Positions 3,956-39,263 of a DNA stretch of 64,000 nt are shown here, one piece after another. The notes under the pieces were generated by a model, which worked only from the letters and a program-made list of their open reading frames with translations, did not search any database and was not told where the DNA came from. Numbering within the stretch: position 1 is the first letter of the stretch; every line of letters begins with the position of its first letter. The stretch is from positions 294,606 through 358,605 of the forward strand of contig CAWHSF010000003.1 in NCBI GenBank assembly GCA_963832025.1, given 5' to 3'. The position numbers were made by a program, and so were the translations under genes. The stretch comes from Candidatus Nomurabacteria bacterium (GTDB taxonomy: Bacteria; Patescibacteriota; Minisyncoccia; Phycocordibacterales; UBA9973).

Positions 3956-4012
3956 ATTGGGACGTCGGACACCTGCTTTAGCAGATGTCCGACGTCTGGA
4001 GGTTTATGCACT
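3956..4012. repeat. palindromic repeat family A, copy A2 (island left border)
   Basis: GACGTCGGACACCTGCTTTAGCAGATGTCCGACGTCTGGAGGTTTATGCAC. Confidence 0.8.
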
Positions 4013-4098
4013 TGTGTAATTTTGCATAAATGTTATAAATGCATTCATATAGTTCTATTCATTCTGGCTTCATAATCCACTCAGAGGAGTGTTACACC

Positions 4099-4290
4099 TT
4101 GAAAGAAAGTGCCACAGTACTTCGCAACAACAACCAAAAGGCGGCCGTTGCGGCCAAGGTGTTTAAGGGGGGCGTTCAAAAACCCCAAAGACAAGATGTT
4201 GCTGCTGACATTCGTCGGCAGTGGGGCAAACCGAGTCACAGCAAAAGTCGCAACTGGCGTTGGGGAGTGGCGCTGGCTGGCATTGCATAA
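4099..4290 (+). CDS. hypothetical small basic protein (~63 aa, TTG start after GAGGAG RBS); first cassette of S10-operon island
   Basis: RBS gaggag 8 nt upstream of TTG; preceded by TTGCAT-17-nt-TATAAA promoter-like unit; followed by hairpins 4296-4360. Confidence 0.25.
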   Translation: MKESATVLRNNNQKAAVAAKVFKGGVQKPQRQDVAADIRRQWGKPSHSKSRNWRWGVALAGIA

Positions 4291-4451
4291 ATAAAGACAG
4301 CCGGAGCTGTCTAAAGAAAGGAGGGAAGGGCGTCGGGATTAACTCGGCGCCCTCTTTACATTTACTTGCATTGTCATAAATAAATGTTATAAATAAAAAC
4401 GAATTCGTAATTAGTGAGCTACGGATAGTAGCTCGCTTTGGGAGAGAAGAA

Positions 4452-4649
4452 ATGGCCAACAGAGGTTCAGCAGTTTTACCGCATCGTAAGCAAGTGAAAA
4501 CCACCATGACAACCTTGCCCCGGCAAACACAGGAACCAGATGTTGTGGAAGAGATCATCGGTCGAGTTTTTCACGGCGGACACAAGCCACAACTTTATCC
4601 ACCCAATCCACGACAACAGCAAGCAGCCGAAGAATCTGCAGAAGAGTAG
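4452..4649 (+). CDS. hypothetical 65-aa protein (second island cassette)
   Basis: ATG preceded by GGGAGAG RBS, own promoter-like TTGCAT..TATAAAT at ~4368-4398, strong terminator 4663-4715. Confidence 0.35.
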   Translation: MANRGSAVLPHRKQVKTTMTTLPRQTQEPDVVEEIIGRVFHGGHKPQLYPPNPRQQQAAEESAEE

Positions 4650-4662
4650 ATCGAATTTCAAC

Positions 4663-4715
4663 GGGCGGGGAGTCGATGTTTCGACACCCCGCCCGCATTT
4701 GCGTTTACTCGATTT
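4663..4715 (+). terminator. intrinsic terminator after 65-aa ORF
   Basis: GGGCGGGGagtcgatgtttcgacaCCCCGCCC + T-rich tail. Confidence 0.6.
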
Positions 4716-4728
4716 TAATATTTTATTT

Positions 4729-4780
4729 CCAGACGTTGGACATCTGCTAAAGCAGGTGTCCAACGTCAGTCCAACGTCTC
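4729..4780. repeat. palindromic repeat family A, copy A3
   Basis: CCAGACGTTGGACATCTGCTAAAGCAGGTGTCCAACGTCagtCCAACGTCTC. Confidence 0.8.
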
Positions 4781-4929
4781 TTCACTTTTGTATTCTTGTG
4801 TTATATTTTTTGTATGGTATAAATATAAGTAGAACTAGTTCCTGCCGCCTAGCAGGGAGGCGGTACAACCTCAAAGCAAAAAAAACAAAGTGGATGCGTA
4901 AGCACACGTAAGCCATTGAGGGTCAGGTA

Positions 4930-5109
4930 ATGCAGAAAGAAGTAAACAAAAAAGCTGATTTGTCTACGACGCCTGTCGTCAAGGTTTCCAGTAGCATCGA
5001 ACCGGTTGGAGCAGCAGAAGCAGCAGGGACATACTGCATCGTGTTCGCTCCGCCGGAAAACCGGAAACCGCGGAACTTGATCGTGTACGACAATCGAGGC
5101 CACTACTAA
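4930..5109 (+). CDS. hypothetical 59-aa peptide MQKEVNKKADLSTTPVVKVSSSIEPVGAAEAAGTYCIVFAPPENRKPRNLIVYDNRGHY (below ORF-track cutoff)
   Basis: GAGGG RBS 8 nt upstream of ATG; upstream promoter-like TGgTATAAAT ~4803-4815 and 5'UTR hairpin; intrinsic terminator 5120-5176 immediately downstream. Confidence 0.45.
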   Translation: MQKEVNKKADLSTTPVVKVSSSIEPVGAAEAAGTYCIVFAPPENRKPRNLIVYDNRGHY

Positions 5110-5119
5110 AGTGGCCACA

Positions 5120-5176
5120 GGGGTTCATCGGCAAGCCAGCTGATGAACCCCACCGTTATTTTTACCCGATTTTTTA
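5120..5176 (+). terminator. intrinsic terminator after 59-aa peptide gene
   Basis: GGGGTTCATCggcaagccagctGATGAACCCC + TTATTTTTaccCGATTTTTT. Confidence 0.65.
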
Positions 5177-5195
5177 TAATTTTAAATTGCGAAAC

Positions 5196-5223
5196 TTGCT
5201 TTTATTTTAAAGTATGTTATACT
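5196..5223 (+). promoter_or_regulatory. sigma70-like promoter TTGCTT-16-TATACT driving candidate sRNA
   Basis: -35 5196-5201, -10 5218-5223. Confidence 0.4.
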
Positions 5224-5229
5224 TTATGG

Positions 5230-5420
5230 TAGATAGCTCCTCCGTGCTTTTTGTGGAGGCCTGTCTCCTGGCAATTCGTGAGTGGCTCCTCCACTCCTCA
5301 GGAGTTGAGCGCTTTGGCAACACTCTGCGGATGCTAGGTTGTAACATTGCTCCATTTTTCTATTCTCCTTGGGTCTGAATTCGGGTTTTGCCTCCCGTAA
5401 TATCAGACCCTATTTTTTTT
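5230..5420 (+). ncRNA. candidate ~190-nt structured sRNA of unknown family inside S10-operon island
   Basis: No ORF; own promoter; multiple nested hairpins (CCTCC/GGAGG, GAGTGG-ctcct-CCACTC, CCTG..CAGG); ends in GGGTCTGA...TCAGACCC stem plus T8 terminator 5371-5420. Confidence 0.4.
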
Positions 5421-5433
5421 ACCTAATTTTTAC

Positions 5434-5511
5434 TTGACCCGGTAGTAGAACTTTGCGATATGTAAAATTTGCATCAAAGATGCGTCGCAAAGTCTCACTA
5501 CTGGGTTGACT
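5434..5511. repeat. repeat family C copy C1 (long hairpin TTGACCCGGTAGTAG...CTACTGGGTTGAC; 3' end = -35 box)
   Basis: ttgacccggtagtagaactttgcgatatgtaaaatttgcatcaaagatgcgtcgcaaagtctcactactgggttgact. Confidence 0.8.
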
Positions 5512-5533
5512 TTTCAATACTTTGTGCTATGAT
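5506..5533 (+). promoter_or_regulatory. promoter TTGACT-16-TATGAT; -35 box contributed by 3' end of repeat C1
   Basis: -35 5506-5511, -10 5528-5533, followed by GGAG RBS and ATG 5556. Confidence 0.5.
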
Positions 5534-5555
5534 ATTAGAGAAGGAGATTTGCACC

Positions 5556-5792
5556 ATGTCGACCCAAGCAACAAAGGAGCGGGTTGGCCCGTTCCTCTTA
5601 ATCGGTTCCCTGTTTGCGGTGCCGATAGGTCTAGCGTTCTTTTACGAGGGTTTCAAAATCCAGGGAGACACATTACTGTCCCCGTCAAAGCTGACATGCT
5701 TTGTAGCTGGCGGGCTAATGGCTCTCTTCGGCATCATCTTTTGCTGGAGACACAACAACGACGGGAGGTTGGACAATGAAAGGTGGCGCTAG
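5556..5792 (+). CDS. small 2-TM membrane protein (78 aa), paralog of following ORFs
   Basis: GGAG RBS; two hydrophobic helices; internal similarity CFVAGGLMALFGIIFCW ~ FWVPGSLLALVGGIYLLY in next ORF. Confidence 0.5.
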   Translation: MSTQATKERVGPFLLIGSLFAVPIGLAFFYEGFKIQGDTLLSPSKLTCFVAGGLMALFGIIFCWRHNNDGRLDNERWR

Positions 5793-5976
5793 GAGGGGTA
5801 CTAGTTTCAACGTGGGTGCTGCAGTTGCGGCGGTGGCGCTCGCGATGGTAGTTTTCATCCACGACGATGCCGCCAAAAGCGCCCCTGACTTTATCGTCAG
5901 ATTTTGGGTGCCTGGTAGCCTCCTAGCTCTTGTGGGAGGAATCTACCTGCTCTACCGCCTCATCGTTCACAAGTGA
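5776..5976 (+). CDS. small 2-TM membrane protein (66 aa), overlaps previous ORF, paralogous
   Basis: RBS-like aggagg; hydrophobic; terminator 5990-6036 downstream. Confidence 0.45.
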   Translation: MKGGARRGTSFNVGAAVAAVALAMVVFIHDDAAKSAPDFIVRFWVPGSLLALVGGIYLLYRLIVHK

Positions 5977-5989
5977 TCGTTTTCACAGA

Positions 5990-6036
5990 CCGGTACCTGC
6001 GCAAAGACGCGGGGCCGGTTTTCGCTTTTTATTTAA
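5990..6036 (+). terminator. intrinsic terminator (repeat D copy 1)
   Basis: accggtacctgcgcaaagacgcggggccggttttcgctttttattt. Confidence 0.55.
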
Positions 6037-6039
6037 TTT

Positions 6040-6067
6040 GACTTTCTTGGATTTTATGCTATGATCT
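6040..6067 (+). promoter_or_regulatory. promoter TTGACT-16-TATGAT (near-copy of 5506 promoter incl. gaggagat RBS)
   Basis: -35 6040-6045, -10 6062-6067. Confidence 0.5.
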
Positions 6068-6083
6068 TCTTGAGGAGATCTTT

Positions 6084-6551
6084 ATGACAACAACAAGGTT
6101 CGGAGGTTCTCTCTGCATCGGTAGAGAGGAACTTGTAATAGCTGCGGTGTTTGTTACCATGGGCTTGGCCTGCCGTGTATCGACAAAAAGCAGTCGTGAA
6201 GCTGCCACAATGGTAATTGTGGTGGGGGTAGTCGCATTGTTAGCCTTACTATGGCAGGGGGTGAGAAAGGCCATTTCCTCCATTCTTCTCCCAACGTGGC
6301 GTGTGGTACCCAGGTTCGCAATCGCTTCGTGGAAGTTTGCGAGGAAGGGTCCGCGATACTGGATTCAGATTGCGGCGGTTGGGCTAATCTTCATCGGGGC
6401 TTTTGTCCTTGTGAGGTTGGATTTCAGCAAAGGAACGTCACTGGCGACGCTCCTTTCTCAAGTGTTAGCGAGCTTCTCTATACTTATTGGAGCGGGTTCG
6501 TACGTTTATTGTATAGGAGTGTTCAAGTTTCCAAACAGGTCCCAAGAGTAA
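6084..6551 (+). CDS. 4-TM membrane protein (155 aa), looks like tandem fusion of the 2-TM unit
   Basis: gaggagatctttATG RBS; 4 hydrophobic helices; terminator 6570-6617 is a copy of the 5990-6036 terminator. Confidence 0.55.
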   Translation: MTTTRFGGSLCIGREELVIAAVFVTMGLACRVSTKSSREAATMVIVVGVVALLALLWQGVRKAISSILLPTWRVVPRFAIASWKFARKGPRYWIQIAAVGLIFIGAFVLVRLDFSKGTSLATLLSQVLASFSILIGAGSYVYCIGVFKFPNRSQE

Positions 6552-6569
6552 ATCGTTTCGTTTCAATTC

Positions 6570-6617
6570 GACCGGCACCCGCGCAAAGACGTGGGGCCGG
6601 TCTTCGCTTTTTATTTT
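6570..6617 (+). terminator. intrinsic terminator (repeat D copy 2)
   Basis: accggcacccgcgcaaagacgtggggccggtcttcgctttttatttt, ~90% identical to 5990-6036. Confidence 0.55.
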
Positions 6618-6736
6618 GAATATGCTATGTTTCTCAGTAGGATAGTTCTTTTGGAGAGCGGTCTCCTGACAGGAACTATCTCGTGTGATAACGGGCTCTA
6701 AGCGTTTAAGCGCGTCCGTTACCACACATTCCGCAA

Positions 6737-6780
6737 CCGGGAGCCAGCTGCTTTTGGCAGGCTCCCGGTCTTTTTATTTT
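6737..6780 (+). terminator. intrinsic terminator closing the island
   Basis: ccgggagccagctgcttttggcaggctcccgg + T-run. Confidence 0.6.
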
Positions 6781-6839
6781 ACGTGAAAAAATGGTTTTTT
6801 TATTTCAGCTTTTCGGAATAAGGGCAATATAAAATCTAG

Positions 6840-6868
6840 TTGACAATTTTTCCTTATTTGCTACTATG
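6840..6868 (+). promoter_or_regulatory. internal promoter TTGACA-17-TACTAT re-initiating the r-protein operon at rpsS
   Basis: -35 6840-6845, -10 6863-6868, 28 nt upstream of rpsS ATG. Confidence 0.5.
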
Positions 6869-6896
6869 AAACCAAGCTCGTAGCGAGCTTTTTATT

Positions 6897-7247
6897 ATGA
6901 CTCGAAGTATCAAAAAAGGATTAAATGTCGACGAAAAACTTCTCTCAAAGATTGTGGGCAAAAACCCGCTCGAGACACCAATGGTAAAAACTTGGAAAAG
7001 AGCCTGCGTCATTTCTCCGGAGATGCTGGGTTTTACTTTTGGTGTGCATAATGGCAAAACCCATGTGGAAGTTTTGGTGACCGAAGATATGGTCGGGCAC
7101 AGACTCGGAGAATTTTCCCCAACCAAGAAATTTATTAAACACGGAGGAAAGATGCAGAAAGAGCTTGAACAGAAGAAAAAAGAAGCGGAGATTACTGCTG
7201 CCAAAGGTGCGACAGCGGCTGCCGAAGATGCTAAGGGTAAAAAGTAG
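6897..7247 (+). CDS. rpsS: 30S ribosomal protein S19 with ~25-aa Lys/Glu/Ala-rich C-terminal extension
   Basis: RSIKKGLNVDEKLL...HNGKTHVEVLVTEDMVGHRLGEFSPTKKF S19 signature. Confidence 0.93.
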   Translation: MTRSIKKGLNVDEKLLSKIVGKNPLETPMVKTWKRACVISPEMLGFTFGVHNGKTHVEVLVTEDMVGHRLGEFSPTKKFIKHGGKMQKELEQKKKEAEITAAKGATAAAEDAKGKK

Positions 7248-7369
7248 AAATGAATCCCGTACGAAATCGCGGACGCATAAAATAAACAAAAATATGAAAA
7301 AGATAAAATATATTATAAATAACAAAAAGGACAACGAAGCGTAAGCGTACGCGTCCTATTTCGTACGGG
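7246..7369. repeat. repeat family B copy B1 (~120 bp: GC-rich palindromic ends around A/T-rich core), ends exactly at rplV ATG
   Basis: CCCGTACGAAATCGCGGACGCATAAAATAAA...AAAAGGACAACGAaGCGTAAGCGTACGCGTCCTATTTCGTACGGG. Confidence 0.85.
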
Positions 7370-7762
7370 ATGAAAGCATTTTTAAAAAATTACAGACAAT
7401 CACCCAGAAAAGTTCGCTTAGTGGCGAGTTTGGTTAAAGGAAAAAGTGTGGCACAAGCGATTGCCGAGCTTGATTTTTTAGCAAAACGTTCAGGATTACC
7501 GATTAAGAAACTTTTACTTTCTGCAGTGGCCAATGCAAAACAAATGGGCATTGAAAGTGAAAATTTATTTATCAAAGAATTACGAGTAGACAAAGGAATT
7601 GTGATGAAGAGGATGATGCCTGCAGCCATGGGTACCGGACACCGCATCAATAAACGCACCAGCCACATCAATATTCTTTTGGCTGAAAAAGTTGTTGCTG
7701 TTCCAAAAACCAAGGTTGCCAAAGTTAAAAACACAAAAACTAAAAAAGTAGCAAAAAAATAA
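7370..7762 (+). CDS. rplV: 50S ribosomal protein L22 (C-terminal K-rich tail)
   Basis: SPRKVRLVASLVKGKSVAQAIAELDF L22 signature; ATG directly abuts repeat B1. Confidence 0.93.
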   Translation: MKAFLKNYRQSPRKVRLVASLVKGKSVAQAIAELDFLAKRSGLPIKKLLLSAVANAKQMGIESENLFIKELRVDKGIVMKRMMPAAMGTGHRINKRTSHINILLAEKVVAVPKTKVAKVKNTKTKKVAKK

Positions 7763-7777
7763 TTTTACAAAAACAAC

Positions 7778-8500
7778 ATGAGTAAAATAGTTCACCCATA
7801 TGCGCATAGATTGATAATATTAAGAGACTGGAAATCTCGCTGGTTTGCCGACCCTAAAAAATACGTGGCTTACTTGAAGGGTGATGTTTTGATTCGTGAA
7901 TATTTGACCAAGAAATTACGTGGAATGTATATTTCCACAATTGAAATCGAGAGAAGTAGAAAAGCTACTCGTTTCATTATCAAGACTTCTCGTCCGGGTA
8001 TGATTATTGGCCGAAACGGTGAAGGGGTAACAAAACTCAAGGAAGATATCTTGAAAAAGATGGACAAGTTGGGTATTCCAAAACCGGAAGACTTCAAACT
8101 GGAAATTGTGGAAATTACCAATCCCGAAGCCGATGCCGCAATCGTTGCTTACATGATTGCCGAAGGTTTGGAGAAGAGAATGCCTTATCGTCGCGTTATC
8201 AAACAAATTATTGAGAAAGTTATGCAAGCGCACGGAGTGGAAGGTGCGAGAATCGTGCTTTCGGGCCGTTTGGGTGGAGCGGAAATTGCCCGCACGGAAG
8301 AATTGAAGCGCGGAAGTGTTCCACTTCAAAGTTTCCGCGCGGATATCGATTTCAAACGTGAACGTGCAACGCTTTCTTATGGAGTTGTCGGTATCAAGGT
8401 TTGGATTTATCGCGGTAAAATTTTTGCTGACAAAAAACCTGCTCGTGGCATGGATGGCGGAGACGGAAGCTCATTAGAAAATAAAAATAAGACGGATTAA
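7778..8500 (+). CDS. rpsC: 30S ribosomal protein S3
   Basis: KIVHPYAHRLIILRDWKSRWFA...KH domain GMIIGRNGEGV. Confidence 0.95.
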   Translation: MSKIVHPYAHRLIILRDWKSRWFADPKKYVAYLKGDVLIREYLTKKLRGMYISTIEIERSRKATRFIIKTSRPGMIIGRNGEGVTKLKEDILKKMDKLGIPKPEDFKLEIVEITNPEADAAIVAYMIAEGLEKRMPYRRVIKQIIEKVMQAHGVEGARIVLSGRLGGAEIARTEELKRGSVPLQSFRADIDFKRERATLSYGVVGIKVWIYRGKIFADKKPARGMDGGDGSSLENKNKTD

Positions 8501-8503
8501 TAT

Positions 8504-8935
8504 ATGGCATTAGTACCGAAAAAAGTAAAATTTAGAAAATGGCAAACTGGGCGGAACAATCCGAAGTCCAGAAATCCAGAAACTCGTGGCACCAAGCTTG
8601 CTTTCGGTTCTTTCGGTTTAAAATCTGAAACTCAAGCGCGAGTAAAATCAAATCAACTTGAATCCGCTCGAAAAGTAATTTCGCGCACTTTAACTAAGAC
8701 CGGTAAATATTGGATTCGTGTGTTTCCGGACCGTCCTTATACCGCTAAGGCCGCAGAAGTAGGCATGGGAAAGGGAAAAGGAGACCCGCAAGGATATTGC
8801 TTTGATGTTCTTCCGGGTAGAATTATTTTTGAAGTGGATGGAGCGGAAGAAAAAGTTGCTCGCGAAGCGCTCCGAAAAGCAGGAACAAAACTTCCTGTTA
8901 AAACCAGAATTATTTCACGAGCTCACAAGCAATAA
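8504..8935 (+). CDS. rplP: 50S ribosomal protein L16
   Basis: MALVPKKVKFRKWQTGRN...GMGKGKGDPQGYCFDVLPGRIIFEV. Confidence 0.95.
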   Translation: MALVPKKVKFRKWQTGRNNPKSRNPETRGTKLAFGSFGLKSETQARVKSNQLESARKVISRTLTKTGKYWIRVFPDRPYTAKAAEVGMGKGKGDPQGYCFDVLPGRIIFEVDGAEEKVAREALRKAGTKLPVKTRIISRAHKQ

Positions 8936-8944
8936 ATTATACCT

Positions 8945-8972
8945 GTCCCGTACTAAATTTTTGATTACGGGG
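8945..8972. repeat. mini family-B-like hairpin (rplP-rpmC spacer)
   Basis: TCCCGTACtaaatttttgatTACGGGG. Confidence 0.45.
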
Positions 8973-9012
8973 CATAAAGATAAAGATTATTAATTAAAAT
9001 TTTAGTACTGGG

Positions 9013-9225
9013 ATGGTCAAAACAAGCAAAAACACAAAAAAAAGTTTTAAAGAAATGCCCGACACAGAGCTTAAAAAAGAGTTGGTTGTTTTGAAGGAAA
9101 ATTTACGAGTAATACATTTTAAATCTGAAGGTTCAAGACCAAAAAATGTTAAAGAAGCCACAACCTTAAAAAAACAAATTGCCCGCATCATGACGGAATT
9201 AAACAATAAAAAAGTAATAAAGTAA
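9013..9225 (+). CDS. rpmC: 50S ribosomal protein L29
   Basis: [21 protein letters not shown]29-like; synteny. Confidence 0.88.
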
Positions 9226-9229
9226 TTAT

Positions 9230-9541
9230 ATGAAAACAGACAAAGAACAAGAAAAAAAACCTGCCCGCAATACTTTCAGCATAGCTGATGCAGGCGGGGA
9301 AGATGAAGCCAAAGGCAAATTCCTAAAAGGAGTGGTTACTTCCGACAAGATGGATAAAACTGTCGTGGTTTCTGTTTCTCGTTTTGTGAAGCATCCTCTT
9401 TATGGAAAATTTTACAAAGTCAGCAAGAAATACAAAGCGCACGATGAAGGCAATATATATAAAACAGGCGATAAGGTAGAAATCATGGAAACCAAGCCGA
9501 TTTCTAAAGACAAAAGATTTAAAGTAATTTCCAAAGAATAA
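9230..9541 (+). CDS. rpsQ: 30S ribosomal protein S17
   Basis: [28 protein letters not shown]17 signature. Confidence 0.93.
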
Positions 9542-9546
9542 TTTTT

Positions 9547-9918
9547 ATGATTCAAAATGAAACTTTAGTAAAAATAACAGATAATGCCGGAGGCACCGTG
9601 GGAAAGGTGTTCAAAATTTTAGGCTCTTCAAAAAAGAGATATGCTACCCTTGGGGAAGTGGTAATCATCTCCGTTAAAGTGGCGAGCCCTCGAAAGGCGG
9701 TAAAAAAGAAAGATGTTCATCAAGCTGTTGTAGTACGCACTCGTGGAGCTTATCGCCGAAAAGACGGTTCATATATTCGTTTTGATGATAACGCTGTTGT
9801 GATTTTGGAAAAAGGTAAAAAAGATCCAAAGGCAGGTCGTGTTTTCGGACCGATTCCGAGAGAGTTGGCAGAAAAAGGTTTTCAAAAAATAATTTCGTTG
9901 GCGCAGGAAGTAATATAA
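9547..9918 (+). CDS. rplN: 50S ribosomal protein L14
   Basis: MIQNETLVKITDNAGG...VVVRTRGAYRRKDGSYIRFDDNA. Confidence 0.95.
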   Translation: MIQNETLVKITDNAGGTVGKVFKILGSSKKRYATLGEVVIISVKVASPRKAVKKKDVHQAVVVRTRGAYRRKDGSYIRFDDNAVVILEKGKKDPKAGRVFGPIPRELAEKGFQKIISLAQEVI

Positions 9919-9924
9919 TAAGAA

Positions 9925-9965
9925 CAGACGTTGGATATCTGCTAAAGCAGGTGTCCAACGTCTCC
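9925..9965. repeat. palindromic repeat family A, copy A4 (rplN-rplX spacer)
   Basis: CAGACGTTGGATATCTGCTAAAGCAGGTGTCCAACGTCTCC. Confidence 0.8.
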
Positions 9966-9978
9966 AAAAATAAATTTT

Positions 9979-10197
9979 ATGAAGATGAAAAAAAATGACA
10001 ATGTGAAGATAATTACGGGCAAGGACAAAGGTAAGTCCGGTAAAATTGTGCGTGTTTTGGTGAAAGAGAATAAAGTTGTGATTGAAGGTATCAATATGAT
10101 GAAAAAACACCAACGCCCACGAAAAACAGGGGAGAAGGGGTCTATGATGAATGTGGCCATGCCGATTCACGCTTCCAACGTTAAAAAGACAGAATAG
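9979..10197 (+). CDS. rplX: 50S ribosomal protein L24 (short form)
   Basis: KKNDNVKIITGKDKGKSGKIVRV KOW motif. Confidence 0.9.
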   Translation: MKMKKNDNVKIITGKDKGKSGKIVRVLVKENKVVIEGINMMKKHQRPRKTGEKGSMMNVAMPIHASNVKKTE

Positions 10198-10233
10198 TTC
10201 GACTTCGCTCACTATAAATAAATTTAAAAACAT

Positions 10234-10806
10234 ATGGCAACAAAACATTTAACCGTAAAAAACAAAGAACAAGAGGCATTTGAAAAAATGAAAAGTATGT
10301 TTCATTATAAAAATGCTATGGCTGCGCCAAAACTAAAAAAGGTTGTTGTAAATACTGGCACTGGCACACCGATGAAAAAAGATAAAAACAAAAATACTTC
10401 TATCGCGGAACGTTTAGCAAAAATTACCGGACAAAAAGGAGCACTCCGAGGCGCAAAACAATCCATTTCATCTTTCAAGGTTCGCCAAGGTGACCCAATC
10501 GGTATCGTGGTTACTATCCGTGGAAAGAGAATGTATGCATTCTTGGAAAAACTTATAAATGTGGCTATCCCTCGCACAAAAGATTTCAGAGGAATCAATC
10601 GCACCGCTGTGGACAATATCGGCAACCTGACTATCGGCATCAAAGAACACACCATCTTCCCGGAAACAGCCGATGAAGATATTCGCGATGTATTTGGCAT
10701 GTCTATCACTTTGGTTTCCACCGCAAAAAATAAAAAAGAAGGTACCGCATTTTTTGAAATTCTAGGTATTCCTTTCAAGAAGGAAGAAGTGATTAAGAAA
10801 AAATAG
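10234..10806 (+). CDS. rplE: 50S ribosomal protein L5
   Basis: RQGDPIGIVVTIRGKRMYAFLEKLINVAIPRTKDFRG L5 signature. Confidence 0.95.
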   Translation: MATKHLTVKNKEQEAFEKMKSMFHYKNAMAAPKLKKVVVNTGTGTPMKKDKNKNTSIAERLAKITGQKGALRGAKQSISSFKVRQGDPIGIVVTIRGKRMYAFLEKLINVAIPRTKDFRGINRTAVDNIGNLTIGIKEHTIFPETADEDIRDVFGMSITLVSTAKNKKEGTAFFEILGIPFKKEEVIKKK

Positions 10807-10887
10807 GGTTTGACCCGGGTAGTGAATTTTGGCGAAGCGCAAAGCGCAATAATAAATTATCGCCAAAATCTACTACCGGGTTTGACT
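10806..10887. repeat. repeat family C copy C2 (rplE-rpsN spacer)
   Basis: gggtttgacccgggtagtgaattttggcgaagcgcaaagcgcaat...atcgccaaaatctactaccgggtttgact. Confidence 0.8.
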
Positions 10888-10910
10888 AATTTCTATAAAC
10901 CTGCTAGTAT
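10882..10910 (+). promoter_or_regulatory. promoter TTGACT-17-TAGTAT; -35 box is 3' end of repeat C2
   Basis: -35 10882-10887, -10 10905-10910 upstream of rpsN. Confidence 0.4.
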
Positions 10911-11025
10911 CACAGCAAGGGAATAGGGCTTTGCTTAATCCATTTTTCTCCTCCGACGCTCTAAAGGGTTAGAGGTTCGGAGAAAAAAAATGAGATATTG
11001 GTAGAGTAACCCCGATAAATTATTT

Positions 11026-11211
11026 ATGGCAAAAACATCAGTCAAAGCAAGAGCGAGAAAGGTACCGAAATTTTCTACTCGACAAAAAAATCGATGTTTT
11101 CGTTGCGGACGAGGCAATGCTTTTATGCGTGACTTTGGCATTTGTCGTATCTGTTTCAGAGAATTAGCAAACGAAGGAATGATGCCTGGCGTTCGAAAGT
11201 CTTCTTGGTAG
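11026..11211 (+). CDS. rpsN: 30S ribosomal protein S14 type Z (zinc-binding)
   Basis: 61 aa, [23 protein letters not shown] Cys4 motif. Confidence 0.93.
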
Positions 11212-11212
11212 T

Positions 11213-11330
11213 CCCGAACGAAATCGCGGACGCATAAAATAAATAAAAACATGACAATGACAAAATATATTAAAAATAACAAAAAGGACAACGAGGTAAG
11301 CGTAAGCGTACGCGTCCTATTTCGTACGGG
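11213..11330. repeat. repeat family B copy B2, ends exactly at rpsH ATG
   Basis: ~85% identical to 7246-7369 including both ends. Confidence 0.85.
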
Positions 11331-11717
11331 ATGGATCCAATTTCAAATATGATAATCGTGATGAAGAATGGAAGCTTGGCAGGCCTAGAGTCTGTAACTT
11401 TTCCTTATTCCAAAATGAAAAATGCTATCGGCGAATGTCTAAAAAAAGAAGGCTATGTTTCCGAAGTTTCCAAAAAAGTAAAAAAAGGCATTCCGGTGTT
11501 GGAAATAAAATTAGTGTATACAGACAAAAAACCAAAAATTACCGAAGTGGAGAGAATTTCCAAACAATCCCGCCGTGTTTATTTTGGGATGAAAGACATT
11601 CATTCTGTCCGTAATGGCTCGGGTTTACTTGTGCTTTCAACACCGAAAGGAATTTTATCCGGTAAAGAAGCAAGGAAAGAACAGGTCGGAGGAGAAGCAT
11701 TGTTTAGGTTGTGGTAA
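11331..11717 (+). CDS. rpsH: 30S ribosomal protein S8
   Basis: MDPISNMIIVMKNG...LLVLSTPKGILSGKEA; ATG directly abuts repeat B2. Confidence 0.93.
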   Translation: MDPISNMIIVMKNGSLAGLESVTFPYSKMKNAIGECLKKEGYVSEVSKKVKKGIPVLEIKLVYTDKKPKITEVERISKQSRRVYFGMKDIHSVRNGSGLLVLSTPKGILSGKEARKEQVGGEALFRLW

Positions 11718-11721
11718 TTAT

Positions 11722-12255
11722 ATGTCAAGAATAGGAAAACAAGAAATTTTAATACCAGCGGGAGTGAAAGTCGTTCAAAACGGCAACTCTTTGTCAGTGA
11801 CTGGCCCAAAAGGTACCCTAACCAGGGTTTTCCGAGATGATATAATCATTACTGTTGCTGACAAGAACGTAACTTTAAATATAAAAAGGAATGACAAGTT
11901 TTCCAAATCTTTATGGGGAGCTTATGCTTCGCATATCAAAAATATGATAAAGGGAGTTGAAACGCCTTATCAAAAGAAATTAATCTTGGAAGGTGTCGGA
12001 TTTAAATCCGAGGTCAAAGGGAAGGAATTTAATTTTGCTCTTGGATTTTCTCACCCGGTCATTGTAAAAATTCCGGAAGGGATTTCGGCTACCGCAGAGA
12101 AAAATGTCATCACTATTTCCGGTATTGATAAAGAACTTGTCGGAAGTTTTACGGCAGCCATTCGCGCATTAAAAAAGCCGGAACCATATAAAGGTAAAGG
12201 TATGCGTTACGAGGATGAAGTTATAAGACGAAAACAAGGCAAGAAAACAGTATAA
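11722..12255 (+). CDS. rplF: 50S ribosomal protein L6 (ORF-track start 11614 overlaps rpsH; 11722 preferred)
   Basis: MSRIGKQEILIPAGVKV...two L6 repeats. Confidence 0.92.
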   Translation: MSRIGKQEILIPAGVKVVQNGNSLSVTGPKGTLTRVFRDDIIITVADKNVTLNIKRNDKFSKSLWGAYASHIKNMIKGVETPYQKKLILEGVGFKSEVKGKEFNFALGFSHPVIVKIPEGISATAEKNVITISGIDKELVGSFTAAIRALKKPEPYKGKGMRYEDEVIRRKQGKKTV

Positions 12256-12263
12256 AGATAAGT

Positions 12264-12304
12264 CCAGATGTTGGACATCCGCAGAGCGGGTGCACAACAT
12301 CTGA
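12264..12304. repeat. palindromic repeat family A, variant copy A5 (rplF-rplR spacer)
   Basis: CCAGATGTTGGACATCCGCagagCGGGTGCACAACATCTG. Confidence 0.6.
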
Positions 12305-12315
12305 GCAAAAAAGAT

Positions 12316-12657
12316 ATGCAAAACAAAACAGACAAAAGAATAAGATTAAAGAAAAAGATAAGAGCCAAAATAGTGGGCACGGCAACACGTCCTAGGCTCA
12401 CGATTTTTCGCTCCAATAAATTTATCTATGCGCAGATTATTAACGACGCTACAGGCAAAACTCTAACGGAAGCCAGCGATGTTAAAATCACCAAAGGAAC
12501 AAAAACCGAACGAGCAAAAATAGTCGGGAACACTATCGCTACAAATGCGATAAAAACAAAAATCAAAAAAGTAGTTTTTGATCGCAATGGATTTAAATAT
12601 ACCGGACGAGTCAAAATAGTGGCGGACGAAGCGAGAGCTGGGGGATTAGAATTTTAA
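12316..12657 (+). CDS. rplR: 50S ribosomal protein L18 (start 12316; upstream ATG 12268 lies in repeat A5)
   Basis: RIRLKKKIRAKIVGTATRPRLTIFRSNKFIYAQIINDATGKTL. Confidence 0.92.
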   Translation: MQNKTDKRIRLKKKIRAKIVGTATRPRLTIFRSNKFIYAQIINDATGKTLTEASDVKITKGTKTERAKIVGNTIATNAIKTKIKKVVFDRNGFKYTGRVKIVADEARAGGLEF

Positions 12658-12672
12658 ATTATTTTTAATCAT

Positions 12673-13269
12673 ATGGAAAAAGGCAAAGAAAATACAAGAG
12701 AAAATACAAGTGGAGGAAAGAAACGCAATGACCGAAGAGGTTCTTCTTTTGGCAGAGTAAAACCGGAATTTGATCAAAAGATTTTAAATATTCGTCGTGT
12801 GACCAGAGTGGTCGCCGGAGGACGCAGATTTTCTTTTAGTGTGGCTCTCGTTGCAGGAGATAAAAAAGGTTCTATTGGTTTAGGTTTGGGAAAAGCCGGA
12901 GATACGGCCTTGGCCATCAACAAAGCTCTTCGCAATGCCAAGAAAAATATGATTAGATTAAAACTCACCAAGGCGATGTCCATTCCCCACGAACTTTCCG
13001 CCAAGTTTTCCAGTTCATATATTGTCTTGCGCCCAAACAAAGGACGTGGGCTTGTGGCTGGGTCAGTCATTCGCGACATAGTCAAACTCTCTGGTATGAA
13101 AGATATTACCGGGAAAATATTTTCCAACAGTAAAAATAAATTAAATAATGCCAAGGCAGTAATGTCCGCTTTGTCTCAGATTTCTTCAAAATACGCAAAG
13201 ATAGTCCCAGAAACCATTGTTGTTGCCAACAAAGAGGTTGTTGTCCCGGAAATTGAAACTGAAAAATAA
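12673..13269 (+). CDS. rpsE: 30S ribosomal protein S5 (N- and C-terminal extensions)
   Basis: RVTRVVAGGRRFSFSVALVAGDKKGSIGLGLGKAGDTALAINKALRNAKKNMIRL S5 dsRBD. Confidence 0.95.
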   Translation: MEKGKENTRENTSGGKKRNDRRGSSFGRVKPEFDQKILNIRRVTRVVAGGRRFSFSVALVAGDKKGSIGLGLGKAGDTALAINKALRNAKKNMIRLKLTKAMSIPHELSAKFSSSYIVLRPNKGRGLVAGSVIRDIVKLSGMKDITGKIFSNSKNKLNNAKAVMSALSQISSKYAKIVPETIVVANKEVVVPEIETEK

Positions 13270-13293
13270 ATTTATTCTTAATTTAAGAACATC

Positions 13294-13596
13294 ATGCAAA
13301 CACATAATCTAAAAAGAACTCACAAGAATAAAAAAGACAGAATCGTTGGCCGTGGAGGGAAACATGCGAAAACTTCTGGCCGTGGAGGCAAGGGGCAGAC
13401 AGCGCGCGCGGGGAACAAGCGTCGTCCAGAGCTTCGTGATATCATTAAGAAATTGCCAAAGAATCGTGGCTATCAATTCAAATCCAAAAAGAAGCCATTT
13501 GTCTTGAAAAAAGAAAAATTAGCTTCTCCCACGGAAAAATTTTCTGAAATCAGAAAACGCCTGGGAATAAAAGGAAAAAAGATAGTTATAAAATAG
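13294..13596 (+). CDS. rplO: 50S ribosomal protein L15 (short, 100 aa); rpmD/L30 absent between rpsE and rplO
   Basis: GRGGKHAKTSGRGGKGQTARAGNKRRPEL Gly/Arg-rich L15 N-domain; synteny before secY. Confidence 0.8.
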   Translation: MQTHNLKRTHKNKKDRIVGRGGKHAKTSGRGGKGQTARAGNKRRPELRDIIKKLPKNRGYQFKSKKKPFVLKKEKLASPTEKFSEIRKRLGIKGKKIVIK

Positions 13597-13606
13597 AAAA
13601 AAGCCA

Positions 13607-14878
13607 ATGCAAAATTTCTGGAATAAAATAAAGTTGATTTGGACAGACAAAATTCTTCGCAAAAGAGTTCTCTTTGTTTTTTTTGCTTTGATAATTTTCA
13701 GACTGCTTGCCGCTATTCCCATTCCCGGAGTGGACACCGTGCAATTAAATCAATTTTTGAATAATAACCAGTTTTTCGGGATTTTAAACATTTTCTCCGG
13801 TGGAGGACTTTCCAATCTTTCCATCATCATGCTCGGCGTCGGTCCCTATATTACCGGCTCCATCATCATGCAACTTCTCACCATCATGGTTCCTGCTTTG
13901 AAGAAAATTTATCACGAAGAAGGAGAGGCTGGTCGTAAGAAATTTGCTCAATACGGCAGATTACTCACGGTTCCTCTCGCTGCTATTCAGGGTTTCAGTC
14001 TTTTGTATATCTTGGAGAAAGAAAATATTTTAGTTAATCTGACAACTTTTGATCGCATCACCAATATCTTTATTGTCATTGCCGGAAGTGTACTTTTGAT
14101 GTGGATCGGCGAACTTGTTTCTGAATTTGGTATTGGCAACGGGGTATCACTTATAATTTTTGCCGGTATTGTCGCTCGTTTGCCTGCCTGGGTGAGTCAA
14201 CACATTTTCACTTTTGATATTTCTCAACTTCCTTTATATCTCGTGTTTCTGGTCGTGGGTGTGCTTATTTTGGCCGGCATCGTTTTGGTGACGGAAGCTG
14301 AAAGACCGATTCCTGTGACTTACGCGAAACGAGTTCGGGGTGCCAAAATGTATGGAGGCGGTTCTACCTATCTGCCATTGCGTGTAAATCAAGCAGGAGT
14401 TATTCCAATAATTTTTGCTCTTTCTATCTTGCTTTTTCCGCAAATGATTGGCGCCTTTTTATCTAGATATTCAAATGCTATTATCTCAAAAATTTCTCAT
14501 GTTTTGATTGGTTTCACGCAGACCAGTGTGCTTTACGCGGTGCTTTATTTCATCTTCGTCTTCCTGTTTACTTATTTTTACACTGCGGTAACTTTTGACC
14601 CCGAAGCTCTTTCTGAAAATCTGCAAAAAAATGGCGCATTTATCCCAGGTATTCGTCCAGGCGCTTCAACTTCTAGTTATATTTCCAACGTCTTAAATCG
14701 CATTACTCTTTTAGGTGCGGTCTTTCTGGGAATAGTGGCTATCTTGCCTCTCATTATGCAATTCGTCACCGGCAACACTTCTTTTGCGCTTGGTGGTACG
14801 TCCATCCTCATCGTCGTCTCCGTCGTTCTCGACCTGATGAAAAAAGTCGATGCGCAAATTTCAATGCGGGAATACTAG
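13607..14878 (+). CDS. secY: preprotein translocase subunit SecY
   Basis: 423 aa, 10 TM, GVDTVQLNQF...GGGLSNLSIIMLGVGPYITGSIIMQLL. Confidence 0.95.
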   Translation: MQNFWNKIKLIWTDKILRKRVLFVFFALIIFRLLAAIPIPGVDTVQLNQFLNNNQFFGILNIFSGGGLSNLSIIMLGVGPYITGSIIMQLLTIMVPALKKIYHEEGEAGRKKFAQYGRLLTVPLAAIQGFSLLYILEKENILVNLTTFDRITNIFIVIAGSVLLMWIGELVSEFGIGNGVSLIIFAGIVARLPAWVSQHIFTFDISQLPLYLVFLVVGVLILAGIVLVTEAERPIPVTYAKRVRGAKMYGGGSTYLPLRVNQAGVIPIIFALSILLFPQMIGAFLSRYSNAIISKISHVLIGFTQTSVLYAVLYFIFVFLFTYFYTAVTFDPEALSENLQKNGAFIPGIRPGASTSSYISNVLNRITLLGAVFLGIVAILPLIMQFVTGNTSFALGGTSILIVVSVVLDLMKKVDAQISMREY

Positions 14879-14919
14879 ATTTGTAGTTTTAGAAATTTTA
14901 TATATATAAAATAAAGCAC

Positions 14920-15177
14920 ATGGAAGAACTTAGTTTTAAAAGGGAAGGGAGAGAGTATAGTAAAGAATTATACCATGAGCTCGAATCTTTCATAGCTCAG
15001 GATTGTGTGTTAGTTTTACAAGACGGTAAAAAAGTAAAAGGACATTTAAATTCTCTCAGTCTCAGTGCCGATGGAATTCCACAGATTGGTTTTAAAGTAA
15101 AGGATGGAAAAATTTTTTCTCAATACAATTACAATTTAGAATTTGATAATATCAAGGACGTTGAAAGAGTGGAATAA
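14920..15177 (+). CDS. hypothetical 85-aa protein
   Basis: ORF with plausible composition in secY-adk gap; no recognisable motif. Confidence 0.4.
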   Translation: MEELSFKREGREYSKELYHELESFIAQDCVLVLQDGKKVKGHLNSLSLSADGIPQIGFKVKDGKIFSQYNYNLEFDNIKDVERVE

Positions 15178-26324: not shown

Positions 26325-26384
26325 AAATCAAATAAACAACATAAAGAAAAATCCCCTAGATGGGGATTTTTCTTTATGTTGTTT

Positions 26385-26726
26385 ATTTAGCTGCTGCTAC
26401 GACTTTTGCAAATGTTTTTGGATGATGTTCGGCAAAGTCGGAAAGAATTTTTCTGTCCAGCATTATGTTTTTCTTATGTAAACCATCGATTAACTTGGAG
26501 TATGATATTCCGAGTTCTCTGGCACCAGCATTTATTTTAATATTCCAAAGTTTGCGATTATGTGATTTCTTGTCTCTGCGATGCGCGAAAGAATAACTCC
26601 GGCATGCAAGAGCGCGTCTTTTGCCTGACGTTCCTTGGTACTGCGTCCATGGCGCATTCCCTTAGTTTGCTTCAAAACACTTCTCCTTCTTTTTAATGCA
26701 TGTACTCCTTTTTTTACTCTGGTCAT
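26385..26726 (-). CDS. rplT: 50S ribosomal protein L20, reading frame broken by -1 frameshift near 26597 (GGAAG->GGAG)
   Basis: MTRVKKGVHALKRRRSVLKQTKG then frame 3 SYSFAHRRDKKSHNRKLWNIKINAGARELGISYSKLIDGL matches L20 throughout. Confidence 0.85.
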
Positions 26727-28156: not shown

Positions 28157-28173
28157 CTCCGCTACAATATTTG

Positions 28174-31164: not shown

Positions 31165-31178
31165 TAGATAGCACACAT

Positions 31179-31252
31179 CCGTCCTTAGCTCAGCTGGTTA
31201 GAGCACAGAGCTTATACCTCTGGGGTCCTTGGTTCGAATCCAAGAGGACGGA
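31179..31252 (+). tRNA. tRNA with anticodon UAU (Ile2-type AUA decoder), C1:G72 acceptor end
   Basis: Cloverleaf: acceptor CCGUCCU/AGGACGG, D GCUC/GAGC, anticodon stem CAGAG/CUCUG loop CUUAUAC, T CUUGG-UUCGAAU-CCAAG. Confidence 0.75.
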
Positions 31253-31267
31253 CAAGCAAATAAATTT

Positions 31268-32468: not shown

Positions 32469-32473
32469 ATCAA

Positions 32474-35509: not shown

Positions 35510-35522
35510 AGAATAAATAGTT

Positions 35523-37799: not shown

Positions 37800-37836
37800 A
37801 TTTGAATTATATAACTAAAAAGAGTACAATGCAGTT

Positions 37837-38085
37837 ATGGACACATCTTCACAATCAGAGCTTTTCTTCTTTATTTCTTCAGTGGGTTTTGTTTTTCTGT
37901 GGATTTTAGTAGCTATCTTTTTGTACTACCTTATTCGCGCTGCTAGTGCGTTATCCAGAATTACCGAAAAATTTGAAAAAAATATCAACAATATCGGAGA
38001 TACGACTAGAGAACTGCTTGATGATATGAAAGACAATATAATTTTTAAATTTCTTTTTGGAAAGAAAAGAAAATCCAAAAAATAA
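37837..38085 (+). CDS. hypothetical small membrane protein
   Basis: one TM helix, 82 aa. Confidence 0.4.
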   Translation: MDTSSQSELFFFISSVGFVFLWILVAIFLYYLIRAASALSRITEKFEKNINNIGDTTRELLDDMKDNIIFKFLFGKKRKSKK

Positions 38086-38154
38086 TTTGTAATAATTCTT
38101 GTTTTAAAACGGCTAGTATTAAGAACTGAGAATAAATAATTAATAACAATAGAT

Positions 38155-38544
38155 ATGAAAAAAGTTATGAAAAAGAAAAACGGAATGACAGGGGGAAAAA
38201 TGTTGGCGACGGGAGTGGGGATGGCGCTTGGCGCCGGAGCTTATTATTTGCTCGGCCCGGAAGGGAAGAAGCACCAAAAGAAAGTTTCGGATTTAATCGG
38301 TAAGATGAAAACAGAAGTAGAAAAGGAAGTAAAAAAATCAAAAGAAATCACTGTTCCTCTTTACCATAAAGTAGTAGACAGTATTTCCGCGGAATATGCC
38401 AAGCAATACGAGATGCACGAACCAGAAATTAAAGCTTTTACGAAAAAACTAAAAAGAGAATGGAAAGGTGCCGTAAAAAAAGCAAAAACAAAGCCAGTCA
38501 AGAAACTTGCCAAAACATCCAAGAAGAAAAAAGCCGTAAAGTAA
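38155..38544 (+). CDS. hypothetical Lys-rich protein (YtxH-like?)
   Basis: N-terminal TM, K/E-rich; terminator-like palindrome 38561-38625. Confidence 0.45.
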   Translation: MKKVMKKKNGMTGGKMLATGVGMALGAGAYYLLGPEGKKHQKKVSDLIGKMKTEVEKEVKKSKEITVPLYHKVVDSISAEYAKQYEMHEPEIKAFTKKLKREWKGAVKKAKTKPVKKLAKTSKKKKAVK

Positions 38545-38650
38545 AAATAAAGCCTCATTCTTGTTACAAGAAATACATTAAAATACTATTAAGAGTATTT
38601 CTTTGTAATATTTACAATACACGTTCGTCAAGGTTACAATAGTTTATGTT

Positions 38651-39190
38651 ATGAAAATACAGAAATTAATTATTGTAAATGGGTTGCCGGCGAGTGGCAA
38701 AACCAGTTTGGCAGAAGAGCTTTCACGTGAGTTGCATATTCCGATGTTCAACAAAGATGGAGTGAAAGAAGTTTTGTCCGACAGTATGAGGGTGGTCAGC
38801 GTGCAAGGGTCTCGCAGATTTAATGATCCCAGCTGGGCGCTGCTTTTTTATATTTCTAAAACACTTTTGACACACAAGTTTTCTGTTATCATAGAAGGGA
38901 ACTTTAAACCTAGTCCCGACATGGAAGAATTCGGACTGCAATTAAAAAATTCTGGTGTGACTATCATAGAGATTTTTTGTAAAGTACCCGGAGAGATTTT
39001 AGTGGACAGATTTACAAAAAGATTGGATGGGCGGCATCCTATCCACCCTCGGGTTATACCCTTGTCTTTTGTGCGAGAACTTCGAGCTAGTAAACTCACT
39101 CCGCTTAATATTGGTAAAACTTTAGAAATAGACACTTCCGATTTCTCAAAAATTCCATATAGAAAAATAATAAAATTCATCAGGAAATAA
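38651..39190 (+). CDS. P-loop kinase/ATPase (AAA_33-like)
   Basis: IVNGLPASGKTSLAEEL Walker A. Confidence 0.65.
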   Translation: MKIQKLIIVNGLPASGKTSLAEELSRELHIPMFNKDGVKEVLSDSMRVVSVQGSRRFNDPSWALLFYISKTLLTHKFSVIIEGNFKPSPDMEEFGLQLKNSGVTIIEIFCKVPGEILVDRFTKRLDGRHPIHPRVIPLSFVRELRASKLTPLNIGKTLEIDTSDFSKIPYRKIIKFIRK

Positions 39191-39192
39191 TT

Positions 39193-39263
39193 CCTCCAGA
39201 CGTTGGATTGACGTTGGACACCCGCCAAAGGCGGATGTCCAACGTCTGGAGGTTTATCCACAA
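39193..39263. repeat. palindromic repeat family A, extended copy A6
   Basis: CCTCCAGACGTTGGAttgacgTTGGACACCCGCCaaaGGCGGATGTCCAACGTCTGGAGGTTTATCCAC. Confidence 0.8.

Follow-up and report, generated by a model that had tools for sequence, protein, structure and literature searches.

A dispersed palindromic hairpin repeat, probably a small mobile element, in the ribosomal protein operon of a Nomurabacteria genome and in related Paceibacteria

Results

Family A copies in the window

The window analyzed here is a 64,000-nucleotide stretch of a Candidatus Nomurabacteria bacterium (GenBank assembly GCA_963832025.1, contig CAWHSF010000003.1, forward-strand positions 294,606 to 358,605), and it includes a ribosomal protein (r-protein) cluster of about 12 kb. 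An earlier note, made from the sequence alone, described a palindromic hairpin repeat (family A) at six sites, mostly within this cluster. Family A is probably a small palindromic mobile element resembling repetitive extragenic palindromic (REP) sequences or Rickettsia palindromic elements (RPE), and one subfamily of a Paceibacteria/Nomurabacteria superfamily. Five observations carry this reading. Copies are dispersed at non-orthologous sites in many genomes, and a given orthologous site may have a copy in one genome and none in another. Copies also reside in frame inside conserved genes, with stem pairing kept by compensatory change. Finally, the core is identical between genomes whose fourfold-site identity is just 43-49%.

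All six sites were confirmed. A covariance model trained on 52 distinct copies, the six window copies among them, recovers precisely those six (52-66 bits, E 8e-19 to 2e-14), and it finds no seventh copy in the 64-kb window (next candidate E = 0.17). The half-site CCAGACGTTGGACA has 17 matches in the window at up to three mismatches, compared to 3.0 +/- 2.0 expected from shuffles, and every match with two or fewer mismatches falls within the six sites. Five of the 11 hairpins found by a generic long-hairpin scan of the 64 kb belong to family A. The 42-nt core first proposed describes the family consensus, but as typed it comes within three mismatches of copy 3 only (which has two). For each window copy the model favors one strand over the other by 14-27 bits; this strand is plus for three copies and minus for the other three.

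Genes around the copies were assigned by Pfam, and the starts of L23 and L18 were placed by alignment with sister genomes. Copy 1 (2757-2797, minus strand; model match 2751-2800, 52.4 bits) lies in the spacer between L4 (2099-2758) and L23 (start 2807), and its foot overlaps the L4 stop codon (TAG, 2756-2758). Copy 2 (minus strand; hairpin 3958-4000, element to 4011; match 3954-4003, 59.7 bits) lies 44 nt past rplB (L2, 3075-3914), at the left edge of an island located between rplB and rpsS. It is the GACGTCGGACA variant (GTCGGAC), in which T>C on one arm is compensated by A>G on the other, and its tail GGAGGTTTATGCAC is at 3998-4011. Copy 3 (4729-4781, plus strand; match 4725-4774, 66 bits) lies within the island after the terminator-like hairpin of a small open reading frame (ORF). 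No other copy is as near to the family consensus. A further 11-nt half-site, GTCCAACGTCT, lies in tandem at 4768-4781.

Copy 4 (9925-9965, plus strand; match 9920-9969, 61.2 bits) is in the spacer between L14 (9547-9918) and L24 (9979-10197). Its foot is 7 nt past the rplN stop codon, its end is 13 nt ahead of the rplX ATG (9979), and its predicted RNA fold is -28.4 kcal/mol. Copy 5 (12264-12305, plus strand; match 12260-12308, 54.9 bits) is in the spacer between L6 and L18 (start 12307), and it begins 9 nt past the stop codon of rplF (L6 ends at 12255). Copies 1 and 5 have diverged through stem mismatches and altered inner stems: the core of copy 1 reads GTTGTAC at a T.C mismatch and its inner stem is CCGT/ACGG, and copy 5 has compensated C-G to T-A changes (GATGTTG/CAACATC), an internal mismatch, and the inner stem CCGC/GCGG. 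Copy 6 (minus strand; hairpin 39196-39250, element to 39262; match 39203-39253, 54.6 bits) adjoins a tRNA, as was noted initially. This gene is tRNA-Ser (39277-39364, minus strand), and the copy is 14 nt downstream of it counting the tail, with the hairpin proper about 26 nt away. In copy 6 the inner stem is CCGCC/GGCGG and the tail is GGAGGTTTATCCACA; there is also one extra tandem half-site, at 39196-39209.

All six window copies are extragenic, and three are 0, 7, and 9 nt past the stop codons of L4, L14, and L6. The initial claim that all copies lie between co-transcribed essential genes holds in part only: copy 3 is inside the island and copy 2 is at an interruption of the cluster. Promoter-like and terminator-like sites divide the r-protein cluster at the island, before rpsS, and before rpsN. 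The ATGs at 2782 and 12268 had been regarded as artefacts of the repeat, and sister-genome alignment bears this out: they are false starts within it, and the true starts are 2807 and 12307. Five of the six copies are in or beside the r-protein cluster (about 12 of 64 kb), an approximately 20-fold enrichment (by our own estimates, binomial P ~0.001 by length and ~0.02 by spacer number). This enrichment may come from the many short spacers, from high transcription exposing single strands, or from function.

Hairpin structure and polarity

Each family A element forms one hairpin, about 40-55 nt long, whose stem has three parts. The outer stem (3-7 bp) varies and is followed by a conserved core of 13 bp, in which CAGACGTTGGACA is paired with TGTCCAACGTCTG, and then by a variable inner stem of 4-6 bp with a loop of 3-8 nt. 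The oriented element reads outer stem, CAGACGTTGGACA, T, inner stem, loop, inner stem, G, TGTCCAACGTCTG, outer stem. In the 52-copy alignment, 82.5% of cells are standard pairs, and 104 cells have changed on both sides compared to 53 +/- 5.7 in shuffles (0 of 500 shuffles reach 104). Pairing drops to about 30% when partner columns are slid by 1-3. The informative covariation is held by the inner and outer stems; one inner pair, for example, is CG in 29 copies, GC in 12, and UA in three. As RNA, all six window copies are predicted to fold strongly on either strand (-19 to -42 kcal/mol).

Several asymmetries recur in the hairpin and give the element a polarity. Next to the core, 22 copies have a T-A pair, 17 have C.A, and eight have T.G. 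Core position 8 is mismatched in about nine copies (GTTGTAC opposite GTCCAAC). The extra tandem 11-nt half-site found at 4768 and 39196 in the window also occurs in loci L006, L044, and L021 from other contigs, and its side is constant relative to the wobble. The fourth asymmetry is the tail. The polarity of copies does not follow the direction in which their surroundings are transcribed. Five subfamily markers recur at non-orthologous sites across genomes: the tail, the third half-site, the mismatch at position 8, and the types of inner stem and of outer stem.

The tail shared by two window copies, described earlier, was confirmed: GGAGGTTTATSCAC occurs at just two places in the window, 3998-4011 and 39248-39261 (0.03 expected). 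The tail GGAGGTTTATCCACA occurs in these two copies and in L047 and L038, with the same tail-plus-hairpin layout. The tail also contains a match to the DnaA-box consensus TTATCCACA, which is perfect at 39254-39262 and has eight of nine bases at 4004-4012. The layout of TGTGGATAA, ACCTCC, and hairpin is present in L047 (14330-14338) and L038 (2371-2379) as well. Relaxed DnaA boxes are found within 40 nt of five of 51 copies (about 0.7 expected); in L040 and L025, a DnaA box precedes a TTGCAT promoter-like site instead.

A conserved, non-palindromic 13-mer shared by divergent species could serve as a DNA uptake signal; the 12-13-mer would then be a DUS/USS-like competence tag, often in inverted pairs as in Neisseria. 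The window also encodes a ComFC-like protein (53179-53883) and pilin-like N-termini (61743, 62386). However, uptake sequences are over-represented as single copies across the genome, coding DNA included, and half-sites are nearly always paired in family A: 96 of 108 exact 9-mers are paired, most of the others pair with a mutated partner, and true singles number at most four. Self-complementarity and covariation also extend to the segments on either side of the core, which uptake would not need, and the density in the window is just about one element per 10 kb. We consider this explanation very improbable and dropped it because the half-sites almost never occur singly.

The core heptamers GTTGGAC and GTCCAAC fit the attC core consensus (GTTRRRY/RYYYAAC), and copies are located at the left edge of the island and inside it; L016 also has a copy after rplB. 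These features could indicate a recombination site (attC-like or Xer-like) or an operator for a dimeric DNA-binding protein, possibly tied to acquisition of the rplB-rpsS island. On both strands, however, the heptamer order (GTTGGAC ... GTCCAAC) is the reverse of attC, and the attC-like reading was rejected on this ground. Within the island, the units come with promoter-like and terminator-like sites of their own, and no hairpins separate them. In L014, L015, and L047, the island lacks such a hairpin after rplB, and none of the window ORFs that were scanned showed an integrase. The inner and outer stems covary, which favors an extruded hairpin over a duplex and so speaks against an operator. 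Either form of this explanation is a distant prospect. The island was also considered as hairpin-bounded cargo and rejected; sister islands share just two ends with the window, and most have no hairpin.

Orthologous r-protein spacers

The r-protein operons of the window, L012, L014, L015, L016, and L047 were compared, and S8/L6 was also compared in L007. L014 and L015 have an identical L5 protein and are probably one organism. The closest L5 relatives are 87-92% identical, and those with names are Nomurabacteria/Paceibacterota. Fourfold-site identity to the window is 0.47 for L047, 0.43 for L016, and 0.49 for L012, with amino-acid identity of about 84%.

Whether the copies are absent from orthologous spacers of sister genomes was a question raised with the first description. 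Occupancy varies, with spacers filled, empty, or occupied by another subfamily or orientation; L14/L24 is always filled. The L4/L23 spacer has family A in the window and L047, is empty in L016 (ATTTT), and has another family in L014 and L015. After L2, family A is present in the window and L016, and there is no copy in L047, L014, or L015. L14/L24 is filled in the window, L047, L016, L012, L014, and L015, by two subfamilies and in both orientations; none of the six sister loci covering it (five distinct genomes) is empty. S8/L6 has a hairpin in L016, L012, L014, L015, and L007 but none in the window or L047. L6/L18 is filled in the window, in L047 (inverted), and in L016 and L012, and it is empty in L014.

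Some variants are shared at orthologous sites. The GTTGTAC mismatch is common to the window and L047 copies at L4/L23, and the compensated GTCGGAC variant is common to the window and L016 copies after L2. Generally, copies within one genome resemble one another more than they resemble orthologous copies elsewhere. At L4/L23, the window and L047 agree at 25 of 25 arm bases and differ in the inner stem by two compensated pairs. Because arms are identical while fourfold sites are 43-49% identical, the hairpins are either under selection or continually homogenized or replaced, and they are not neutral relics.

Possible RNA function

An effect of the hairpins on RNA stability or translation is plausible. 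A stronger proposal is that family A is a dedicated cis-acting RNA element, selected as punctuation of r-protein mRNAs (an RNase III site, a barrier to 3' exonucleases, or a cause of ribosome stalling at stop codons). A clade-specific factor with drifting specificity would then give genome-specific hairpins at orthologous spacers. Hairpins of the same architecture do occupy orthologous spacers of five or six sisters (L14/L24 in all; S8/L6, L6/L18, and L4/L23 in most), and the greater likeness of copies within a genome, the location of five of six window copies in the r-protein cluster, and the strong predicted RNA folding of all copies fit this proposal. Copies are nearer the upstream stop codon (typically 0-20 nt) than the next start codon, and where the feet of three copies are 0-9 nt past stops, the downstream start region stays unpaired. 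A tmRNA gene is present in the window. In E. coli, REP hairpins stabilize upstream mRNA, and Liang, Rudd and Deutscher reportedly found in 2015 that a REP hairpin reduces expression of the gene upstream, through stalled ribosomes and tmRNA, when the stop codon is no more than about 15 nt away.

If selection acted on the mRNA, the G.U-capable strand should be the sense strand; by our tally it is sense in seven and antisense in 12 of 19 informative copies. Orthologous copies flip orientation, and every spacer but L14/L24 is empty in at least one sister genome. Copies are also located between convergent genes, between divergent genes, and in frame inside ORFs. A dedicated RNA element thus seems unlikely to us as the basis of the family.

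An intrinsic terminator was ruled out, as the stem-loops have no T-run and the downstream sequence is A-rich. A terminator scan of 1-15000 reported the full family A stem-loop at none of the five copies in that stretch; its only entries touching a copy are two short minus-strand sub-stems within the 12264 copy. The Rfam gathering search of the whole window found tmRNA and tRNAs only, and a permissive Rfam search of 3900-7400 gave only weak matches at chance level (e.g., the NrrF 3' hairpin, E = 0.078).

Copies inside genes

In other genomes, in-frame copies are present in PurD (three genomes), MnmA, UvrC (L005), and a 293-aa ORF. The inserted peptides are 12-23 residues long and are absent from solved homologues and most relatives. 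PurD of MAG_BO118 (L008) has 51 residues between GARS_A and GARS_C, about 19 more than PDB 2yw2 over the same stretch, and the additional DNA consists of two hairpins, first one of subfamily 2 and then one of family A. At this position, L050 PurD has the subfamily-2 hairpin only. L049 PurD has a different family A subtype at the equivalent linker, which encodes DVGRLYKNYRRPTS. Most Paceibacteria PurD proteins (427-433 aa) have none of these insertions. The presence of different subfamilies in the same tolerant linker points to independent insertions followed by selection against disruptive ones. In MnmA (L006), the added peptide is PDVGLTLDTRQGRMSNVDPDVQRL, located between the PRC-barrel domain and the C-terminal domain.

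Further lineage-specific in-frame insertions, such as SPLEEYPKGGVDKIHPPRLSATPQ, were seen elsewhere in PurD (P0124, P0153, P0185, P0184, and P0222; alignment A2). In-frame insertions may be common in the Paceibacteria clade. The 293-aa ORF (L009), which has four to five hairpins around it, was considered as a partner protein and rejected; it has no Pfam, NCBIfam, or PDB match and itself contains the in-frame copy.

Distribution in other genomes and metagenomes

The exact pattern GACGTTGGACA-N(8-20)-TGTCCAACGTC was found in 10 contigs of GTDB species representatives and in 27 JGI metagenome contigs, which have no taxon label. Nine of the 10 GTDB contigs are labeled Patescibacteria, and five of these nine are from one metagenome-assembled genome (MAG), GCA_031291825.1. 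No IMG/VR viral contig has the pattern, and a phage link was set aside on this empty scan. Over all loci there are 56 distinct copies, most of them in short spacers and a minority inside genes. The covariance model also detects a sister subfamily (22-28 bits) in the r-protein operons of L012, L014, L015, and L016, so family A is one branch of a wider superfamily. This sister subfamily has the sequence CCAGAyGTCGGTATCCTGC...GCAGGAGCCCGACrTCTGG and a conserved asymmetric 2x2 internal loop.

The earlier note had warned that a repeat confined to assembly joins in this window would point to an adapter or chimera artefact, but the 13-bp core recurs in 36 other contigs that were assembled independently. 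Several projects contributed NCBI MAGs that have the element, and it is also present in assemblies from JGI, ENA, and Logan. Its copies are embedded in conserved gene order, some of them in frame within ORFs, and an independent Logan contig of the same strain (L046, 99.7% identical) has copy 4. Nothing was found in favor of an assembly, adapter, or chimera origin, and this recurrence refutes it.

Two loci have unusual arrangements. L002, a contig labeled Saprospiraceae (Bacteroidota), has one exact-core match at 154-235, at the contig end, with messy overlapping GTCCAAC/GTCCAAT half-sites; this could be misbinning or horizontal transfer. L036, another Patescibacteria contig, has a composite repeat of about 120 nt with copies at 2719-2841, 6105-6227, 9330-9425, and 12238-12333. 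A family A hairpin is present in two of them, and an unrelated hairpin, TTGCGAGCGACGGCGAGCAA, is in its place in the other two, which hints that hairpins are swapped or targeted.

Other features of the window

The island (3915-6896) is 2.9 kb with higher GC content (47%), and it splits the r-protein cluster between rplB and rpsS (S19, 6897-7247). Its ORFs are small, three are membrane-like, and each has its own promoter-like and terminator-like sites. All sister genomes have a gap of 2.2-2.9 kb at the same place, with just the two ends conserved. Among 1.84 billion representative proteins, none is a credible relative of the 155-aa ORF at 6084-6551.

Another repeat, about 118 nt long, is present at 7255-7372 and 11212-11333 (90-92% identity). 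It has terminal inverted repeats of 13+6 bp (TCCCGTACGAAAT...ATTTCGTACGGGA) and an A-rich center, and its copies end precisely at the ATGs of rplV (L22, 7370-7762) and rpsH. Because the equivalent spacers of sister genomes do not have it, this repeat looks like a recent insertion resembling a miniature inverted-repeat transposable element (MITE). The L5/S14 spacer upstream of rpsN (10807-11025) has strong predicted structure (-79.5 kcal/mol over 219 nt) and contains, at 10882, a promoter-like site with an extended -10; its counterparts in sister genomes are structured too. This spacer may serve the S14/S8 unit as a leader or an autoregulatory element.

ARAGORN identified tRNA-Ile (anticodon TAT) at 31179-31253. 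It also assigned the unusual anticodon ACT to the tRNA-Ser at 39277-39364 (minus strand) and found a second, divergent tRNA-Ser (GCT) at 39455-39544 (plus strand), which is reported by ARAGORN only and is not listed by the Rfam gathering search. Other hairpins at 16762, 21127, 26754, 28124, and 53440 are of a terminator-like family, CCCCTCTCC...GGAGAGGGG. The window also has a perfect 27-bp palindrome (26330-26388) and paired, near-identical terminator-containing segments at 52294-52378/53084-53168 (98% identity) and 5988-6034/6570-6616 (91% identity).

Discussion

Small palindromic repeats of several kinds resemble family A. REP sequences and their REPIN doublets (bioRxiv 10.1101/2021.07.10.451892; PMC3116915; PMC3337134) are, like family A, short imperfect palindromes that are mostly extragenic near gene 3' ends, with a polarity defined by mismatches. 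Both form genome-specific families, persist over long divergence, and form stem-loops in mRNA. There are also clear differences. A REPIN is a doublet of about 100 bp made of two inverted 14-bp palindromes, whereas family A is a single hairpin of about 45 nt, and its 13-nt core arm is not itself palindromic, unlike REP. The REP foot is GTAG/GTGG; in the 52-copy alignment the family A foot is yCAGACGTTGG, with no such tetranucleotide. In-frame copies in genes are a family A feature that REP does not share. REP sequences form a system with a cognate REP-associated tyrosine transposase (RAYT, an IS200-like Y1 transposase) in Proteobacteria, encoded by a single-copy gene with REPs on its flanks, while no RAYT was found for family A in the 408 kb sampled. 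Family A apparently has tens of copies per genome (extrapolated), compared to hundreds for REP.

RPEs are palindromic, occur in intergenic regions and in frame in unrelated housekeeping genes, and have no known transposase (PMC10969869). They share with family A a reduced host genome, intergenic copies, in-frame copies that add short peptides, and the lack of a known transposase. However, RPEs are about 100-150 bp with a conserved peptide, whereas family A elements are three times shorter (about 40-55 nt), add 12-23 residues, and are in an unrelated phylum (RPE sequences were compared by description only). None of the six window copies is inside a gene, unlike the in-frame RPE copies. MITEs in operons (Correia, ERIC, and Chunjie) are likewise non-autonomous, hairpin-forming small repeats that are tolerated between co-transcribed genes, and known MITEs can affect mRNA processing or stability (review PMC10969869). 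MITEs have terminal inverted repeats, a target-site duplication, and a related autonomous insertion sequence. The whole family A element is one inverted repeat, and no terminal repeats apart from the hairpin, no target-site duplication, and no parent insertion sequence could be identified in the genomes compared. Membership tests of these named kinds place family A in the broad class of small palindromic repeats and in no named family. The initial REP/MITE-like label holds at this level, and it is strengthened by recurrence of the element in 10 GTDB and 27 metagenome contigs.

As a mobile element, family A would spread as a single-stranded DNA hairpin through a hairpin-specific enzyme, template switching, or gene conversion. 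It would persist where tolerated, i.e., in short spacers right after stop codons and in protein linkers. In r-protein mRNAs, each such copy would unavoidably form a stem-loop of about 20 bp, which probably impedes 3' exonucleases or delays ribosomes that terminate no more than about 15 nt away. The RNA stem-loop would then be a side effect, possibly co-opted, and not the reason the family exists.

Several results weigh against a mobile element. A tblastn search with E. coli RayT over 408 kb (the window and the other loci) gave nothing better than E = 2.3, and Pfam found no transposase or integrase domain in 10 selected window ORFs (minus-strand or adjacent). The compared genomes differ at about half of fourfold sites, and no target-site duplication or insertion motif was definable. 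The sole near-identical strain compared (L046) has the same copy 4, with no insertion polymorphism seen there. The invariance of the 11 core pairs is due in part to the scans that collected the copies, which demanded the core sequence. The filling of L14/L24 in all six sister loci and the r-protein enrichment also fit a selected function. Separately, a TA target-site duplication was considered and rejected; TA flanks several copies, yet the A at -1 is part of the conserved stem, and the flanks show no consistent pattern.

A more specific and more speculative possibility, to which we give only modest weight, is that Paceibacteria have an unrecognized hairpin-propagating system without RAYT. A novel enzyme or a replication-linked mechanism would recognize the 13-bp core in a single-stranded hairpin. 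The elements would have been kept for a very long time and co-opted as punctuation of r-protein cistrons and as a source of peptides in enzymes, and one subfamily would carry the DnaA-box-like tail.

The genomes of Patescibacteria, also known as the Candidate Phyla Radiation (CPR), are usually described as minimal and repeat-poor. Family A contrasts with this picture; here a small palindromic element has colonized the most conserved operon of the cell. No earlier description came up when the literature was searched for repeats of the REP, MITE, or palindromic kind in Patescibacteria, CPR, or Parcubacteria, and such elements thus appear not to have been previously described in this group. The hairpin has been maintained even though neutral sites between these genomes are near substitution saturation, and it has added peptides to core enzymes in several lineages. 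It also affects annotation, accounting for false start codons (2782 and 12268), broken gene calls, and odd insertions in CPR protein alignments. Because filled and empty orthologous spacers are present in related, publicly sampled genomes, family A is a tractable case for deciding whether REP-like elements are passengers or regulators.

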